Shown here: positions 1,590 to 35,917 of the stretch, piece by piece | How the letters are laid out: each line of letters begins with the position of its first letter | How positions within the stretch are numbered: position 1 is the first letter of the stretch | Source of the DNA: Verrucomicrobiota bacterium | GTDB lineage: Bacteria > Verrucomicrobiota > Verrucomicrobiia > Limisphaerales > UBA11358 | DNA length: 64,000 nucleotides | Assembly (NCBI GenBank): GCA_028873125.1 | Contig: JAGWMQ010000002.1 | Location: 15,124 to 79,123 of the forward strand | Direction: 5' to 3' | The notes under the pieces: generated by a model | Databases searched by the model: none | Seen by the model: the letters and a program-made list of their open reading frames with translations, nothing else | What the model was told of the DNA's origin: nothing | Position numbers and translations under genes: made by a program

Positions 1590-4016
1590 ATGAAACGGCC
1601 GCTCGTGGCTGTGGTTGCATTTTATACGGCCGGTCTGCTGATCGCGCAGACCTTCCGACCCCCGCCTCTCGTCCTGTTGGCCGCTTTATCCGCCCTCCTC
1701 GTCCTGGCCCTGGTGCTGGAGACACTCCGTGTGTTGCTGATCGGGCCGATGCTGGTGCTGGCCGGAGCGAGCAACCTGCTCCTGCACACCGCAATCCTCT
1801 CCCCGAATGACCTGCGCAATTTAATTGGCAACGGGCCTGAAATCGTCGTCGTCCGCGGAACCCTGGTCCGGACGCCGCAAATCAAAATCTCCGAGCGCGA
1901 AGGCGAAGAGATCCAACACTCGCTCACCCTGGTCCGCGTCCGTGAAATTCGCCGCGGCGAAAAGTGGCGGCCGGCCGTGGGGAAAATCATGGTCTCCACG
2001 CCCGCGCCCCTCGCCGCCGATTTTTTCGCCGGCCAGGCCGCGGAAGTCTCCGGCGTTATCGCGCGGCCTTCCCCGCCGCTGGCCGAGGGACTTTTTGACT
2101 ACCGCGACTACCTCGCCACCCGGGGCATTTATTACCAGCTTAGAGCGGCCTCAACCAACGACTGGCGTCTGAGCCAACCGGTCTTGCCGAAGCCGCCGCT
2201 GACCGACCGCTTTTTGAACTGGTCCAGGCGCACGCTGGCCATCGGTCTGCCGGTGAAGGACGATCCCCTGCGCCTGCTGTGGGCCATGACGTTGGGCTGG
2301 CGCACGGCGTTCACCGGCGACATCGGCGACCCGTTTCTGCGCGCGGGCACGATGCATCTCTTCGCGATTGACGGGCTGCGTATCGCGCTGATTTCCGGGA
2401 TGCTGGTCGCGTTGTTGCGCGTGCTGCGTGTCGCGCGCGGGTGGTGCGGAGCCGTCGCCATTCCGGTGATCTGGTTTTACACCGCCGCGACGGGATGGGA
2501 ATCCTCGGCAATCCGGGCGGCGGTGATGATGACGCTTGTGCTGGGCGGCTGGGCGCTGAAACGGCCGGGCGACTTGATCAATTCCCTCGCCGCCGCCGCC
2601 TTCCTCATTTTGCTCTGGGAGCCACGCCAGCTTTTTGAGGCGAGCTTTCAATTGTCTTTCTTCGTCGTGCTGGTGATCGCCCTGTTGCTGCCGCCTTTGA
2701 ACCGGATTTGCGATCGCGCACTGCGGCACGACCCGCTGCTGCCGGACGAACTGGTTCCCCGATGGCGGCGCACCCTGACCGGCGCGCTGCGAATGCTGTC
2801 GCGCTACTTCGCTTTGTCACTGGCGGCGTGGGCCGGCTCGATTCCACTCTCGGCGCTCTATTTTCACCTGTTCAGCCCGATTTCGCCGCTGGCCAACGTC
2901 ATCGCCGTGCCGCTGGGCACCCTGGCGCTGATGAGCAACCTGGGCGCGCTGGTCTGCGGCGCCTGGCTTCCGGGGGCGACCGCACTGTTCAACCACGCCG
3001 CTTGGTTCTTCATGGTGGCGATGACGTGGGTCAGCCAGGTCTCCACGAGAATCCCCGGCTCGTTCTTTTACGTGCCCGCGCCTTCATGGATTTCCATCGC
3101 CCTTTACTACGGCGTCCTGATCGTCGCGTTGAGCGGCTGGCTGAACACGGCGCGGAGGAAAATCCTGGGCGCGGCGGTCTTGATTTGCATCGCCGCCGTT
3201 TATCTCTGCCGATGGGAAGGTTCGCGCGATGAAATCCAATTGACCGTCCTGCCGTTGAACGGCGGTCATTCGGTTATCGTGGACGCCACCGGGCGAAAAA
3301 ACGACTGGCTGGTGGACTGCGGCGACGAGAACGCGGTCAATTTCACGCTCAAAAATTTTCTGCGGGCGCAGGGCGTGAACCGGATTCTGCGCCTGGTCTT
3401 GACCGAAGGAAACCTGCGAAACTGCGGCGGCGCCAAATCCCTGGACGACCTCTTCGGCGTCGGAGAATTGTGGACCAGCGGGGCGAAATTCCGATCCCCC
3501 GCCTATCGCGCCGCCGTTTCCGCATTTGAAACCCCGCCCTCGCGCCGAAAAATTTTCGACTGCGGCGGCCAATCCGGCTGCTGGCGGGCGCTGTGGCCGG
3601 AAGCTACCATTCACGTGCCTCGCGCGGAGGACGCCGCGCTGGTGCTGATGGGAAATTTCCATGGCACCCGGGTTCTGCTGCTGTCGGATTTGGGACGCGC
3701 CGGACAGAGCGGGCTGATTTCGGCCGCGGAAGACTTGCGCGCGGATATCGTGATCGCCGGCCTGCCCACCGGGGGCGAACCGCTCTGCGACGCCCTGCTG
3801 GACGCGGTCCGGCCCCGGGCTGTGGTGATCGTGGATTCCGAATTTCCCGCCACGCGCCGGGCGAGCCGCGAGTTGAAGGAGCGTCTGGCGCAGCGGAAAA
3901 TTCCGGTCATTTACACTCGCGATTCCGGCGCGGCGACCCTTCTCGTGGACGACCACGGCCGGCAATTGCGGACAATGGATGGACAACAATTCACTTCCTC
4001 GGACCGATACCAGTGA
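1590..4016 (+). CDS. comEC: ComEC/Rec2 DNA internalization channel with C-terminal metallo-beta-lactamase-like domain
   Basis: Polytopic membrane protein of about 810 aa. It has the DYRDYLATRGIYYQL motif, a competence domain (HLFAIDGLRIALISG) and a C-terminal soluble domain. The ATG at 1590 lies just inside the TTG 1581 ORF start. Confidence 0.85.
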   Translation: MKRPLVAVVAFYTAGLLIAQTFRPPPLVLLAALSALLVLALVLETLRVLLIGPMLVLAGASNLLLHTAILSPNDLRNLIGNGPEIVVVRGTLVRTPQIKISEREGEEIQHSLTLVRVREIRRGEKWRPAVGKIMVSTPAPLAADFFAGQAAEVSGVIARPSPPLAEGLFDYRDYLATRGIYYQLRAASTNDWRLSQPVLPKPPLTDRFLNWSRRTLAIGLPVKDDPLRLLWAMTLGWRTAFTGDIGDPFLRAGTMHLFAIDGLRIALISGMLVALLRVLRVARGWCGAVAIPVIWFYTAATGWESSAIRAAVMMTLVLGGWALKRPGDLINSLAAAAFLILLWEPRQLFEASFQLSFFVVLVIALLLPPLNRICDRALRHDPLLPDELVPRWRRTLTGALRMLSRYFALSLAAWAGSIPLSALYFHLFSPISPLANVIAVPLGTLALMSNLGALVCGAWLPGATALFNHAAWFFMVAMTWVSQVSTRIPGSFFYVPAPSWISIALYYGVLIVALSGWLNTARRKILGAAVLICIAAVYLCRWEGSRDEIQLTVLPLNGGHSVIVDATGRKNDWLVDCGDENAVNFTLKNFLRAQGVNRILRLVLTEGNLRNCGGAKSLDDLFGVGELWTSGAKFRSPAYRAAVSAFETPPSRRKIFDCGGQSGCWRALWPEATIHVPRAEDAALVLMGNFHGTRVLLLSDLGRAGQSGLISAAEDLRADIVIAGLPTGGEPLCDALLDAVRPRAVVIVDSEFPATRRASRELKERLAQRKIPVIYTRDSGAATLLVDDHGRQLRTMDGQQFTSSDRYQ

Positions 4017-4126: not shown

Positions 4127-4273
4127 GGGGAGCACGCGCGTCTCGCGTGTGGGATTCGGCGTCGCGCCAAATCCATCGAGGGTTCGCAGGCCATAACGGT
4201 TTGGTGTGTGTCCCGCGCGGGCGATCCAGTCGGCGCGACGCCGACTGGTGCAGCCGAGACGGCCGCGCTCCTC
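4127..4273. repeat. REP-like inverted doublet (two about 44-nt units in opposite orientation)
   Basis: The unit at 4127-4170 is GGGGAGCACGCGCGTCTCGCGTG-N7-TCGGCGTCGCGCCAA. The reverse complement of 4230-4273 aligns to it (GAGGAGCGCGGCCGTCTCGGC...TCGGCGTCGCGCC). The same unit flanks the thrS insertion. Confidence 0.7.
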
Positions 4274-28855: not shown

Positions 28856-31411
28856 CTACGCCCGCCGTTCTTTGATGGCGGCCAAAATCTCCGCCACCGC
28901 CTCGCCCTTCGGCTTCGCGCCGAGATCGCCCTTGCCGTGGACGCGCACCGAAACGTTCCCGGCTTCCATGTCGCGCGCGCCGATGACGAGCATGGTGTGG
29001 ACTTTTGCCGTCTCGGCATCCTGGATCTTGCCGTTGATTTTGTTGGACGAAAAATCCGCCTCGACGCGGACGAAATTGGCGCGCAGATCGTTCACGACGG
29101 TTCTTGCGTAAGCGACCAGCTTCTCGTCGTCGCCGACGGTCAGCACGCGCACCTGTTCCGGTGCGAGCCAGAGCGGGAAATTGCCGGCGTAATGCTCGAT
29201 GAGGAAGCCGATGAACCGCTCGTGCGTGCCCAGCGGCGCGCGGTGGATGCACAACGGCGTCTTGTCCGTGTTGTCCTTGTCGCGATAGACCAGGCCGAAA
29301 CGCTTGGGCACGGCGAAGTCCACCTGGTTGGTCGCCAGCGTGAATTCGCGGCCGATGACGCTCCAGACCTGCACGTCAATCTTCGGCCCGTAAAACGCCG
29401 CCTCGTTCGGCACCTCCACGTAGGGAATCTTCGAATCAATCAACACCTTGCGGACCAGGTCTTCCGTCTGCTTCCACAACTCCGGCTCGTTGACGAACTT
29501 GGCGTTGTCGCCGGTCAGGCGCGACGGGTCGTGCGTGCTGAAGCGCATGACGTATTTCTCGATGCCGAAAATCTTGAAATACTTGAGATACATCTCGTTC
29601 ACCGCGTTGAACTCGGCGGCAAATTGCTCCGGCGTGCAATAAATGTGCGCATCATTCATATTTAAGGAGCGGACGCGCATAAGGCCGAACAATTCGCCCG
29701 ACTGCTCGTAGCGGTAGCAGGTGCCGTATTCCGCGAGGCGCAGCGGCAAATCGCGGTAACTGCGCGGCTCGGCCGCAAAAATGCGGTGGTGATGCGGGCA
29801 GTTCATGGCTTTGAGGTAATAGCGCTCGACGTTCGCGCTCCCGGCACTGTTCTGCGATGATTGGGGAGCGCGCGCGTCCCGCGTGCCCTCCTCGGCGTCG
29901 CGCCAAGGAGCGTCAGGCGTCCAAAGCCACGGATAACTCTCATCCTGTTTGGCAACACCCGCGTCCCACGGATTTCGGCAAATGTAATGGAACTTTTCTT
30001 CCAAGTCCGCCCCGCCTCGCATAATTCGATCAAACGATTCTTTCTCCCAAACGGGATTGCCTTTCGTCAATTGCGCCTTGTTGATTTCGTGAGCCGTAAA
30101 GGATTTGATGGAATGCAGGAGTTCGGACAACGGCCAGAAAACAGGCTTGCCTTCCTTATCCTGTTCCTTGATTTGCGGTTCGAAAAGCAAGTGAACGTGG
30201 TCCGGCATCACGCAGGCGGCGTAAAGTTCGTAGCGGCGCTGCTCGCGCATGAACAACAAGCTTTTTAACACAATGTCACGGGCTTCCGGTGATAATTGCT
30301 TCCGTTCCTGGGTGCCGAACGTCACCATGTATTTGGCCCACGGACGCTCGAAGTGCGGCAAGCGGCGTTTGGAGTATTTCGCATCTGATTGGGTTTCTGG
30401 GAGCACACGCGTCTCGCCTGTTGCGGCGGGCGCCGCGCCCGGCGCTTCGGTGGCTGTCGCGGCGTGCGAAGAGGTTTCCGGCGCGACGCCGGAAACGGCA
30501 GGCGGGACGCCCGCGCTCCCCTTTTCACCGCGTTCGCGCAATTTCATCGGCGGGAACATACTCTCCGCGTACAGAATCGGCAGATGGCCGCTCGTTAAAT
30601 ACATTTTCTCCCGCGCGATGTGCGGCGTCTTGACGCGCACGTAGCCGGCGGCGAATTCCGTTTCCTTCGCCAGCTTTTCCAGCTCTTCCAGAATCGCCGT
30701 GCCCTTGGGCAGCCACAACGGCAGGCCCGGCCCGACAAATTCCGTGTCAATCGCGAACAGCCCCATCTCCGCGCCGATCTTGCGGTGGTCGCGGCGCTTC
30801 GCTTCTTCGAGCATCTTGAAATACTCATCCAACTGCGTCTTGTTCTTGAACGCCGTGCCGTAGATGCGCTGGAGCTGCGGGTTGCGCTCGTCGCCCTTGT
30901 AGTAGGCGCTGGCCACGCTGGTGAGCTTGAACGCGCCGATGTTGCCGGTGCGCATCACGTGCGGCCCGGCGCACAGGTCCAAGAAATCGCCGTTCTTAAA
31001 ATAGGTGATTGGCTCGCCTTCGGGAATGGCTTCGAGGTTGCCGAGCTTGAACTTGCTGGGATTGCCCGGACGCTCGCCCAAGCCGCCGAGCCGGCCGCTC
31101 TCGGAATCCTTGATGGCCTGCTCACGCGTGACGACGATTTTCTCGAAGGGATGGTTCGCCTTGATTTCCTTTTTCATCTCCGCCTCGATGGCGGGGAAAT
31201 CCTCCGGCGAGATGCGGTGCTTGAGGTCCACGTCGTAATAAAATCCGGTTTCGACCGGCGGCCCGGCGGCGAATTGGGCGTCCGGCCACAGGCGCAGGAT
31301 GGCCGTGGCCATGACGTGGGCGCACGAGTGCCGGATGCGGTCCAACTCGGTCATCTTCGCGCGGTCGTCGAGCGTCTTGCGGTCCTTCAAATTCTCTTGT
31401 TCGGCGGACAC
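28856..31411 (-). CDS. thrS: Threonyl-tRNA synthetase carrying a 226-codon in-frame insertion in the catalytic domain; lacks the N-terminal TGS domain
   Basis: Has the editing-domain motif HSCAHVMA. The catalytic core runs GHLPILYAESMFPPMKL...[insert]...YYLKAMNCPHHHRIF, which includes the zinc-site Cys, and an anticodon-binding C-terminus follows. The ORF is continuous over 851 aa. Confidence 0.9.
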   Translation of the reverse strand: MSAEQENLKDRKTLDDRAKMTELDRIRHSCAHVMATAILRLWPDAQFAAGPPVETGFYYDVDLKHRISPEDFPAIEAEMKKEIKANHPFEKIVVTREQAIKDSESGRLGGLGERPGNPSKFKLGNLEAIPEGEPITYFKNGDFLDLCAGPHVMRTGNIGAFKLTSVASAYYKGDERNPQLQRIYGTAFKNKTQLDEYFKMLEEAKRRDHRKIGAEMGLFAIDTEFVGPGLPLWLPKGTAILEELEKLAKETEFAAGYVRVKTPHIAREKMYLTSGHLPILYAESMFPPMKLRERGEKGSAGVPPAVSGVAPETSSHAATATEAPGAAPAATGETRVLPETQSDAKYSKRRLPHFERPWAKYMVTFGTQERKQLSPEARDIVLKSLLFMREQRRYELYAACVMPDHVHLLFEPQIKEQDKEGKPVFWPLSELLHSIKSFTAHEINKAQLTKGNPVWEKESFDRIMRGGADLEEKFHYICRNPWDAGVAKQDESYPWLWTPDAPWRDAEEGTRDARAPQSSQNSAGSANVERYYLKAMNCPHHHRIFAAEPRSYRDLPLRLAEYGTCYRYEQSGELFGLMRVRSLNMNDAHIYCTPEQFAAEFNAVNEMYLKYFKIFGIEKYVMRFSTHDPSRLTGDNAKFVNEPELWKQTEDLVRKVLIDSKIPYVEVPNEAAFYGPKIDVQVWSVIGREFTLATNQVDFAVPKRFGLVYRDKDNTDKTPLCIHRAPLGTHERFIGFLIEHYAGNFPLWLAPEQVRVLTVGDDEKLVAYARTVVNDLRANFVRVEADFSSNKINGKIQDAETAKVHTMLVIGARDMEAGNVSVRVHGKGDLGAKPKGEAVAEILAAIKERRA
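29825..29906. repeat. REP-like doublet at the 3' (gene-sense) edge of the thrS insert
   Basis: The full unit at 29863-29906 is 36/44 identical to 4127-4170: the first 23 nt have 2 mismatches and the block TCGGCGTCGCGCCAA is identical. A degenerate inverted half-unit lies at 29826-29842. Confidence 0.7.
29826..30520 (-). mobile_element. RAYT-like (IS200/COG1943 HUH-Y1 transposase) domain with REP-like flanks, embedded in frame in thrS
   Basis: The insert translates as KRRLPHFERPWAKYMVTF...ELYAACVMPDHVHLLFEP (HUH motif)...SIKSFTAHEINK...VWEKESFDRIMR...FHYICRNPWDAGVA...YPWLW (Tyr motif). Two hand-counted 60-nt lines inside it are 45-50% GC, against about 67% in a neighbouring thrS line. Confidence 0.75.
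30399..30521. repeat. REP-like inverted doublet at the 5' (gene-sense) edge of the thrS insert
   Basis: 30399-30418 reads GGGAGCACACGCGTCTCGCC. The reverse complement of 30478-30521 reads GGGGAGCGCGGGCGTCCCGCC...CGGCGTCGCGCCGG, and its core is 19/20 identical to 29863-29882. Confidence 0.7.
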
Positions 31412-31572: not shown

Positions 31573-32880
31573 TCAAGGCGCCGCCGGCGTGGCCTGGACG
31601 CGCATCTGTTGGGGGCCGTTGCTCAGCGGATAATTCACCCATGAGCCGGCGGAAGTGTCTGCGTAACCCCCCAGCGATCCGAATCCGATCCAGGGCGTGG
31701 AAAGGGTGTAGGCCCAGTTGACCAAGCCGTTGTCGGCGACAGTCGTGGGTGCGGCCACCACATAATAACCCCCGGAGGGGAGCGGAATGGGCGCGGTGGG
31801 GACAAAATCCACATACCCCGTGTTGTTGACCATTTGCGACGCCACCACGGCGATTTTGTTGGTCGGGTTGTTGTCCGCGCCGGCATGCCAGATGCTGACC
31901 GTCACGCTTCCGCTGCCGGAAGTCGGTTCCAACATTAAAGTGACCCGATCCAGCGTATAATTTCCGGTGGGCAGCGCAAACTCCTGGGCGACGAGAAAAT
32001 CGTTGGAAGTGGAATCGTTGCCGATGGGACCATAATAACCGGCGGTCGGCTGCTCCAAGTTGTCCACGGCAAAACGTTGGCGCAGCCGGAAGAACCGCGC
32101 CCGGTCCGGCCAGAAGTTGGTGAGGGTGTAGTTGCCGGCAACCAGGGCCGGGGGGTTGGTCACCGACAGCCAAGCCGGCGTGGCGGGATTGGTCGCGCTG
32201 ACGAGGGCGAAGGTGTTCAACAGCGCCGGCCAGGAAAGCACCGTGGCGCCGTTCCGGGAATGGATGCCCACAGTCGCCACCGGCGTGGCCTGCACGCTCA
32301 TCTGTTGCGGGGTCCCGAAGGCATAACTGGTCCACGAACCGCCGCGGGTGTCGGCATAACCGTCGAGCGCCCCCGAGCCGGTCCAATTCGTGGAGGCAGT
32401 GTAGGCCCAGCTCACCAACCCGCTGTCCGCGGCGGTCTTCGGCGCGGCCACCACATAATAAAGGCCCGGCAACAGCGTGATGTTGGTGGCCGGAATAAAA
32501 TCCGCGTTGCCCGCGTTGGCCACCAGCCGCGTCGCCACCACGGCGATTTCATTGGTCGGATTGATGTCCGGCCCGACGTTCCAGATGCTGACGGTAATGT
32601 TCCCCCCGCCGCTGGTCGGGCTGAGCGACAGGGTGACTTTGTCAAGACGGTAAGGCGTCAGGCCCGAGGGCACCGTAAATTCCTGGGCGACGAGAAAGTC
32701 ATTCGTGTTGGCATCACTGCCGATGGGGCCATAATACCCTTCGGTGGGCTGGGTCAAGTTGTCCACCAGCACATCGGCGCGCACTGCCGCGGCGCCCATT
32801 ATCCCCAGGCAAAAAAGGGTGGTCCTGATGCAAGTGTCCTTCACAGCGGCATCTTTAGCCAGGTTCCGGTGCGGTTTCAA
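31573..32880 (-). CDS. Secreted protein with two tandem copies of an about 180-aa domain (unknown function)
   Basis: The repeats are VDNLTQPTEGYYGPIGSDANTNDFLVAQEF...QQMSVQATP and VDNLEQPTAGYYGPIGNDSTSNDFLVAQEF...QQMRVQATP. A signal-like segment TTLFCLGIMGAAAVRA precedes them. The start (TTG 32880 or GTG 32844) is uncertain. Confidence 0.6.
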   Translation of the reverse strand: MKPHRNLAKDAAVKDTCIRTTLFCLGIMGAAAVRADVLVDNLTQPTEGYYGPIGSDANTNDFLVAQEFTVPSGLTPYRLDKVTLSLSPTSGGGNITVSIWNVGPDINPTNEIAVVATRLVANAGNADFIPATNITLLPGLYYVVAAPKTAADSGLVSWAYTASTNWTGSGALDGYADTRGGSWTSYAFGTPQQMSVQATPVATVGIHSRNGATVLSWPALLNTFALVSATNPATPAWLSVTNPPALVAGNYTLTNFWPDRARFFRLRQRFAVDNLEQPTAGYYGPIGNDSTSNDFLVAQEFALPTGNYTLDRVTLMLEPTSGSGSVTVSIWHAGADNNPTNKIAVVASQMVNNTGYVDFVPTAPIPLPSGGYYVVAAPTTVADNGLVNWAYTLSTPWIGFGSLGGYADTSAGSWVNYPLSNGPQQMRVQATPAAP

Positions 32881-33086
32881 TCCAATTCCCGCCGCGCAGC
32901 CACTCCGGCAACGGGGTGGATGGTGTGGCAAAACGGTCTCCGAAGCGCGCCGCCGCGCATTCAGAGTTTTGGCCGGCGCCGTCGTGGGTGCGGTTTCTTG
33001 GGCTTCGGCGGTTCCAGTTTGCGGCGGGCCGCCGAAAAATTTTCTTCGCTTGTTGACCGCATCGGGTGTAAAAGCGCGGACGACAA

Positions 33087-35917
<2,831 letters not shown>

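Follow-up and report, generated by a model that had tools for sequence, protein, structure and literature searches.

A RAYT-type transposase element carried in frame by a verrucomicrobial threonyl-tRNA synthetase gene, with relatives in other genes of the phylum

We describe a RAYT-type transposase element that lies in frame inside thrS, the gene for threonyl-tRNA synthetase (ThrRS), in a 64,000-nt stretch of DNA (hereafter the window) from a Verrucomicrobiota bacterium (Limisphaerales; UBA11358): assembly GCA_028873125.1, contig JAGWMQ010000002.1, positions 15,124-79,123. As we interpret it, the element consists of two inverted 49-nt double-hairpin arms around a Y1-HUH transposase open reading frame (ORF), and it is probably complete, still functional, read through as part of ThrRS, and one member of a lineage spread across the Verrucomicrobiota. 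In the mechanism we propose, the element would have integrated in the ThrRS catalytic domain at a surface loop that tolerates insertions. The ribosome would pass straight through it, turning the arms into disordered linkers rich in Gly, Ser, Ala, and Pro, and the RAYT would form a separately folded domain attached to ThrRS. From its essential host gene the element would in this way obtain a promoter, a ribosome-binding site, and a level of expression, and its loss would be difficult, since thrS stays functional only after a deletion that is exact and in frame. Relatives with what appears to be the same lifestyle are found in alaS, thrS, valS, metH, recG, priA, and other genes.

Anatomy of the insert and its host protein

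The thrS ORF (28856-31411, minus strand) encodes 851 amino acids and is open throughout, insert included, bearing out the continuous reading frame reported in an earlier note made from the letters of this DNA alone. Its product scores 559 bits against the equivalog model TIGR00418 (cut-off 383.65), with the match split into two stretches, and contains the Pfam domains tRNA_SAD, tRNA-synt_2b (the class II core), and HGTP_anticodon. The inserted element spans 693 nt, or 231 codons (29828-30520, minus strand; amino acids 298-528), and its ends were located by alignment with alleles that are empty (L007), have a solo arm (L006), or bear a RAYT; an extra segment had been recognized here before, and only its extent (29826-30520, about 226 codons) is replaced by these exact values. 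The residues flanking the insert are ...PPMKLRERGEK (the end of SMFPPMKLRERGEK) before it and ERYYLKAMNCPHHH after it, and the junctions read ...EK/GSAG... and ...ANV/ER.... Once the insert is taken out, the protein is colinear with Staphylococcus aureus ThrRS (1NYQ), and the alignment with 1NYQ and 1QF6 includes the NCPHH segment. On 1NYQ the insertion point falls in a short loop, between PPMQLDE and TESMVLRPMNCPHH, shortly before the zinc-site Cys, which places the insert ~9 residues N-terminal to the zinc-binding Cys of ThrRS.

The RAYT or Y1-HUH core of the insert (KRRLPHF...YPWLW; 29921-30370, minus strand) is supported by Pfam, AlphaFold, a fold search, and the ratio of nonsynonymous to synonymous divergence (dN/dS), with an NCBIfam match just short of its cut-off. 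A full-length, RAYT-like HUH/Y1 domain had been claimed for this segment, and we confirm it: the insert alone matches Pfam Y1_Tnp (PF01797) at 32.5 bits (gathering cut-off 23), and the HUH motif PDHVHLL (amino acids 403-409, encoded at 30185-30205) is followed by the catalytic-Tyr helix FHYICRNPW (amino acids 474-482, encoded at 29966-29992), in the order expected for RAYT/TnpA-REP. The NCBIfam IS200 model NF033573 gives 17-20 bits on the insert, with a cut-off of 55. When AlphaFold is provided with a RAYT-rich alignment, the confidence score (pLDDT) is 92-98 in the core and <50 in both linkers, and in the full-length model the RAYT domain reaches 88-96 and the linkers are disordered (core 88-98 overall). 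The top Foldseek match of the core is 4ER8_A (E = 1.1e-5, TM(target) 0.64), followed by IS200/IS605 transposases; 4ER8, E. coli TnpA-REP in complex with a REP hairpin, is also the best sequence match among solved structures. Within the insert Pfam gives Y1_Tnp alone and no C-terminal helix-turn-helix (HTH), the tail after YPWLW being arm-encoded and disordered. The RAYT ORF brings neither a start nor a stop codon, the whole unit being embedded in thrS, and tblastn found no second RAYT in the 64-kb window.

The GC content of the core is 52% (lowest 150-nt window 46.7%), and 65% at third codon positions (GC3), compared with 60.6% and a GC3 of 84% in the host part of thrS. The lower GC of the core had been noted correctly; the adjacent DNA taken at the time for thrS at 67% is really the GC-rich arms, both linkers that flank the core having a GC content of 71-72%. 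The low-complexity linkers described on either side of the domain are likewise present, and they are really translated terminal inverted repeats (TIRs), the arms of the element.

An inverted repeat brackets the insert (arms 29863-29904 and 30480-30521, 42 nt, 86% complementary), and comparison of alleles gives the architecture of the 49-nt arm as GGGAGC, a 7-bp hairpin with a TCY loop, one base, and a 10-bp hairpin with a 3-nt loop. The left arm (LE; 30472-30520, minus strand) is translated in frame 0 as GSAGVPPAVSGVAPETS, and as single-stranded DNA it folds at -20.2 kcal/mol (z = -3.75). An inner degenerate arm of inverted orientation (30399-30445, plus strand), seen solely in the window and in allele L001, forms a REPIN-like doublet with LE upstream of the RAYT, and the region 30395-30525 folds at -45.8 kcal/mol (z = -3.19). 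The right arm (RE; 29864-29912, plus strand) is inverted with respect to LE, has one stem mismatch in the window, and is translated as ...APWRDAEEGTRDARAPQ. At the 3′ junction lies a second, direct copy of the LE box (29828-29842, minus strand), which is truncated here (gggagcgcgaacgtc) and full-length in alleles L001 and L002.

Selection on the element and polymorphism of the ThrRS loop

The DNA compared here came from four orthologs with a RAYT, one allele with a solo arm, and one that is empty. Pairwise Nei-Gojobori estimates of dN/dS are 0.03-0.07 in the RAYT core, where synonymous divergence (dS) is near saturation, and 0.07-0.15 in the ThrRS host part. The RAYT-free pair has a host dN/dS of 0.097; since the host value is equal with and without a RAYT, the host is no less constrained as a carrier. 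Every linker length difference among the six alleles amounts to whole codons, and the catalytic residues are retained in embedded copies, which come from three host genes and diverge from one another by as much as ~35% (HUH histidines in 84 of 85, Tyr in 85 of 85). The element is under strong purifying selection on both its protein and its arms, which argues that it is not a neutral relic. An earlier suggestion that the insert is a tolerated passenger therefore holds for the host side only, and fails for the element.

Selection on the arms appears to act at the level of DNA. Synonymous differences per same-amino-acid codon are 0.11-0.17 in the arm-linker windows, 0.44-0.50 in the core, and 0.11-0.40 in the host, and the low synonymous divergence over the arm-encoded linkers points to nucleotide-level constraint. 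Covariation was assessed in 65 distinct arms, some of the window and others of related loci, extracted with a pattern that imposed the inner 4 bp of hairpin 2 and left the other 13 pairs free. Standard pairing is found in 98% of arm cells, versus 79% in column shuffles and 31-54% with slid partners, and compensatory changes on both sides of a pair occur in 225 cells versus 67 expected, a number matched by none of 500 shuffles; such double changes affect 11 of the 17 arm base pairs. Forward arms are in frame 0 in all 63 cases, though the six frames are all stop-free; reverse arms do not keep to one frame.

Variation at the insertion site was surveyed in the 120 closest ThrRS proteins (P0121-P0240), which are 75-93% identical to the insert-less query. 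The loop is empty in P0124, P0133, and P0182 (16-23 aa), carries a solo arm (GSAGVPPAVSGVAPETS only; 33 aa) in P0221 and P0226, and in the large majority of orthologs is occupied by an unrelated helical segment that brings it to 57-134 aa. A full RAYT (219-255 aa) sits at the identical position in five proteins besides that of the window, so the insert is not a general domain of the lineage. The segments that flank it had been described as about 10 residues apart in other ThrRS sequences, which is right for 1NYQ and too low for close relatives: the closest insert-free orthologs have a loop of 16-18 aa, and most close ones the longer helical loops. RAYT-bearing alleles are scattered over the host tree; hosts 97-98% identical outside the loop carry a RAYT, a solo arm, or unrelated helical loops, and the gene neighborhood of thrS is kept among RAYT-bearing and related alleles. 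One RAYT-bearing ortholog, P0173, is assembled on 15 contigs, and the JGI annotation of some of these orthologs reads [quoted passage not shown]. Judged from the alignments, this lineage has a natural hot spot for insertions in the loop, which turns over very fast.

Between SMFPPM and YYLKAMNCPHHH the loop is hypervariable, with charged helical segments (57-134 aa) in 97 of 121 close orthologs; they are wholly different between hosts 97-98% identical elsewhere, and 73 of the 97 form one loose family. We considered them as degraded RAYTs and rejected this, as they have no similarity to the element in any frame.

Distances between RAYTs and between their hosts are weakly correlated (Mantel r = 0.39, p = 0.01). 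Strict co-divergence is rejected on this basis, and neither pure vertical descent nor pure homing is established; the element may have spread by vertical descent combined with allele exchange or homing. The solo-arm allele L006 is very near the RAYT-bearing L002 (host dS 0.20) and agrees in sequence with what a crossover between the two direct LE copies would leave of an allele like L002, a plausible way for the element to be lost in frame.

Members of the family in other genes and genomes

We surveyed one genome per species, obtaining 429 loci, and took host details from the best 80, nearly all from Verrucomicrobiota metagenome-assembled genomes (MAGs). In all of these 80 best loci of the 429, the frame is open for hundreds of codons on either side of the RAYT. 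The host is AlaRS in 60 of the 80 (33 copies at site A, 27 at site B, 2 at site C, and 2 unassigned), ThrRS in 11 (species representatives, with the insert in the same loop as in the window), and MetH in 9 (in the linker between the homocysteine and pterin domains). Two MAGs have RAYTs in both thrS and alaS, and the RAYT cores group according to host gene and site. Hundreds of RayT proteins of ~205 aa are also related to the insert, and other relatives are flanked on both sides by AlaRS or MetH sequence.

A search of 50%-identity cluster representatives added further hosts, whose domains lie on both sides of the RAYT where the protein is complete: RecG (P0248, P0254, P0271, and P0283), PriA (P0312), ValRS (P0310 and P0345), a glycyl-radical enzyme (P0249), DNA methylases (P0324 and P0325), and DUF1156 (P0337). 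A foreign and mobile origin of the insert, proposed in the earlier note, is supported by this range of unrelated host genes together with the element's own inverted double-hairpin ends and its polymorphism among near-identical hosts.

Two family members that appear free-standing (L088, 2501-3154; L089, 2501-3109) have their start and stop codons outside the arms, so that both arms are read through. In both loci the ATG follows the stop codon of the preceding gene by 2 nt, and the next gene begins 4 nt after the RAYT stop in L088 and overlaps it by 4 nt in L089. Such copies probably depend on transcription from the host operon, with no promoter of their own, and on translational coupling.

Additional observations concern the same loci. 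The alaS genes of L017, L051, L064, and L081 have two in-frame RAYTs each, plus arm-only in-frame inserts, giving AlaRS ORFs of ~1,500 codons. Further arm-only inserts or doublets, some of them in metH, are found in L040 (5000-5109), L044 (3875-4012), L070 (4214-4330), and L086 (6335-6451). Core GC3 is below host GC3 in 75 of 79 loci (0.63 versus 0.81 in the thrS example). In L090, the contig of P0008 from a long-read metagenome, gene calling breaks alaS, mgsA, and the PEPCK gene into several pieces each, which indicates frequent indel errors; short "fusion" proteins from such assemblies are therefore not to be taken as truncations.

Competing explanations and known relatives of the element

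The reading we favor, that of a mobile element hiding in an essential gene by keeping its frame, is one of three that the earlier note had offered. It competes with domestication, in which the RAYT was co-opted by ThrRS and the other carriers and is kept by selection on the host, not as a selfish resident; it could then provide binding of single-stranded DNA or other nucleic acids, or tie translation or replication restart to DNA processing. Strong purifying selection in a copy that seems to be site-fixed and largely inherited vertically would be expected of a domesticated module, the hosts are enriched for nucleic-acid enzymes (aminoacyl-tRNA synthetases, RecG, PriA, and DNA methylases), and RAYTs in general are regarded as domesticated (PMC6006769 and PMC8266576). 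We nevertheless consider co-option unlikely, since hosts that are 97-98% identical beyond the loop differ in whether they have it, with empty, solo-arm, and unrelated-loop alleles persisting, since the same element occupies hosts as unrelated as MetH and a glycyl-radical enzyme, and since the arms are conserved as DNA hairpins, a feature that serves the element rather than the host enzyme. It is very improbable, in our view, that the insert is removed before the enzyme matures, be it by RNA splicing, protein splicing, proteolysis of the linkers, or excision from the DNA of some cells. Both linkers are predicted to be disordered and could be accessible to proteases, and Y1 enzymes are able to excise DNA precisely; yet no Rfam match to an intron or other RNA family is found in 29600-30750 at E <= 1, the Pfam scan has no intein or Hint domain, the junction residues vary by allele (NVER, GIER, EVER, GSER, and GVER), unlike intein splice sites, and the frame is strictly kept through variable linkers, which removal at the RNA or DNA level would not need.

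Decay and error can be weighed in the same way. A dead transposon fragment, dropped by chance into a tolerant loop without breaking the frame and now slowly degenerating, would agree with the acceptance of unrelated 57-134-aa segments by most orthologs, and with the mismatched RE stem and truncated second LE copy of the window, but a core dN/dS of 0.03-0.07 despite near-saturated synonymous sites, the retention of catalytic residues in 84-85 of 85 copies differing by up to ~35%, and the nucleotide-level conservation and covariation of the arms leave such a relic with very little probability. We attach next to none to an assembly chimera, a frameshifted pseudogene, or a redundant, non-functional thrS. 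The data are metagenome-derived, and P0001 and P0008 do look frameshifted; P0008, however, comes from an error-rich long-read contig (L090) in which neighboring genes are split too. P0173 is represented on 15 independent contigs, the same junctions recur in 11 species-representative genomes and five further orthologs, and the host part shows normal purifying selection in conserved synteny.

Several results weigh against a complete, still-functional element read through by an active ThrRS. On the NCBIfam model REP_Tyr_transpos (NF047646) the insert covers profile positions 4-145 of 146 and reaches 79.9 bits, 0.1 bit short of the cut-off of 80. The synonymous divergence of the core is ~1.5-2 times that of the host, though the two share one reading frame, and the GC3 of the core is lower. 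In the full-length AlphaFold model the ThrRS core has low confidence (mean pLDDT 57.8), because the ThrRS alignment, at 75-93% identity, offers little diversity, and the model gives no reliable placement of the RAYT with respect to the active site or the dimer interface. Within the 557 kb of the 80 loci, host genes included, the strict arm pattern identifies 80 arms adjoining RAYTs and 18 elsewhere within the same host ORFs, and zero in the flanking DNA; the large population of dispersed REPs or REPINs that usually accompanies a RAYT is thus not evident, and mobility at present is only putative. Translation into one polypeptide is suggested by the conservation of the frame, and continued ThrRS activity by the host dN/dS, the conserved synteny, and the TIGR00418 score; the genome would have to be without a second, insert-free thrS, as we suppose it is. 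For its part, the RAYT would be expected to cleave and join single-stranded DNA at its own arms.

In kind, the element is a RAYT/TIRYT with hairpins that fails the "free-standing gene" feature of that family. It resembles RAYT/TnpA-REP systems with REPs or REPINs (REPtrons; 4ER8) in its Y1-HUH core, for which they are the top match in fold and, among solved structures, in sequence, in the inverted hairpin repeats that flank the gene, and in being site-fixed and largely clustering by locus. Known RAYTs, however, are free-standing, with REPs outside the ORF, whereas here the arms are inside the frame and the whole unit is within a host gene that is essential; dispersed repeats in large numbers are not seen (flanks of the 80 loci; one doublet in the 64 kb); and REPs are simple and GTAG-tagged, whereas these arms are 49-nt double hairpins. 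Closer in its ends is the TIRYT/TIRtron group (PMC3733652; subclass 2.1 in PMC6006769), RAYT-like genes flanked by long TIRs, some of which overlap the ORF ends ("5'ov/3'ov"), as reported by Di Nocera et al. (2013; PMC3733652). As in our element, these TIRs open with a G-rich box, the consensus being GGGGWSAS and the box here (G)GGGAGCG, one position off. TIRYTs differ in standing alone and in having, for the most part, an extra C-terminal HTH (PMC6006769), which is absent here.

Intragenic REPs and Rickettsia palindromic elements (RPEs) offer a different parallel, being palindromic DNA that lies in frame and is translated as an extra peptide; intragenic in-frame REPs are reported to be most numerous in Opitutus terrae, itself a verrucomicrobium, and in Rickettsia conorii (PMC3733652). 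The solo-arm and arm-doublet inserts described above are of the same kind. Those elements are short (20-80 aa) and non-autonomous, whereas here the autonomous partner, the transposase, is itself embedded and would be read via the host ORF. Inteins with homing endonucleases are likewise selfish nuclease elements in frame in essential genes, patchy in distribution and lethal to lose imprecisely. They have a Hint domain and splice residues, with Cys, Ser, or Thr at the N-terminal junction and His-Asn ahead of Cys, Ser, or Thr at the C-terminal one, and sit in conserved active-site motifs; by its sequence the present element has none of these, and it pairs a Y1-HUH nuclease with a variable surface loop. 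With IS200/IS605 elements (IS608 and ISDra2) it shares the HUH/Y1 fold, hairpin ends that are presumably recognized as single-stranded DNA here as well, and no evident target duplication, but those have their ends on one strand, often encode tnpB, and are multi-copy, in contrast to the inverted arms, lack of tnpB, and single copy in the window.

The earlier note knew of no aminoacyl-tRNA synthetase hosting a transposase domain. The case is not unique, given a phylum-wide pattern that annotation pipelines already label, and it is true that we found no description of it: full-text searches of the literature turned up TIRYTs and REPs within genes, but nowhere a RAYT lying in frame within a housekeeping gene, aminoacyl-tRNA synthetases included, and as their coverage was incomplete the outcome is absence of evidence only. 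The lifestyle is apparently undescribed. In classifying the Y1 superfamily, Quentin et al. (2018; PMC6006769) dropped unexpectedly long proteins as "gene fusions or annotation errors", so embedded copies would have been filtered out. If our interpretation is true, surveys that drop transposase matches as "too long" overlook a whole lifestyle.

Further consequences are also conditional. Transposases are expected to disrupt the genes they enter, and the known routes by which a selfish element persists inside an essential gene are splicing of the RNA, as in introns, or of the protein, as in inteins. An autonomous element with a transposase seems to manage here without either, its DNA ends doubling as linkers, and if the fusion proteins are made and active it would represent a third route to phenotypic neutrality. 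It might also explain the long-term persistence of RAYT-type elements, and the naturally permissive insertion sites in ThrRS, AlaRS, and ValRS would be useful for protein engineering. As a tentative and rather doubtful extension, these elements could form a distinct class that has given up its own expression signals, has evolved ends that are benign linkers in one preferred frame, and has colonized permissive loops of essential genes. Such elements would act in cis on their own locus via coupled transcription and translation and spread between alleles in a homing-like manner, with rapid cassette-like turnover, such as that of the ThrRS loop, as a by-product; in effect they would parallel inteins at the level of DNA, with no need of splicing.

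Two other features of the window remain to be described. An intergenic doublet of arms of the same family, without an ORF and resembling a miniature inverted-repeat transposable element or REPIN, lies at 4128-4272 (arms 4128-4176, plus strand, and 4224-4272, minus strand; fold z = -2.6 and -4.8) and begins ~110 nt downstream of an 811-aa ORF that ends at 4016. Upstream of thrS, a 508-aa ORF (31573-33099, minus strand) contains two long internal repeats (DNLxQPTxGYYGPIGxDxxxNDFLVAQEF...GYADTxxGSW...QMxVQATP) and resembles a duplicated-domain protein.

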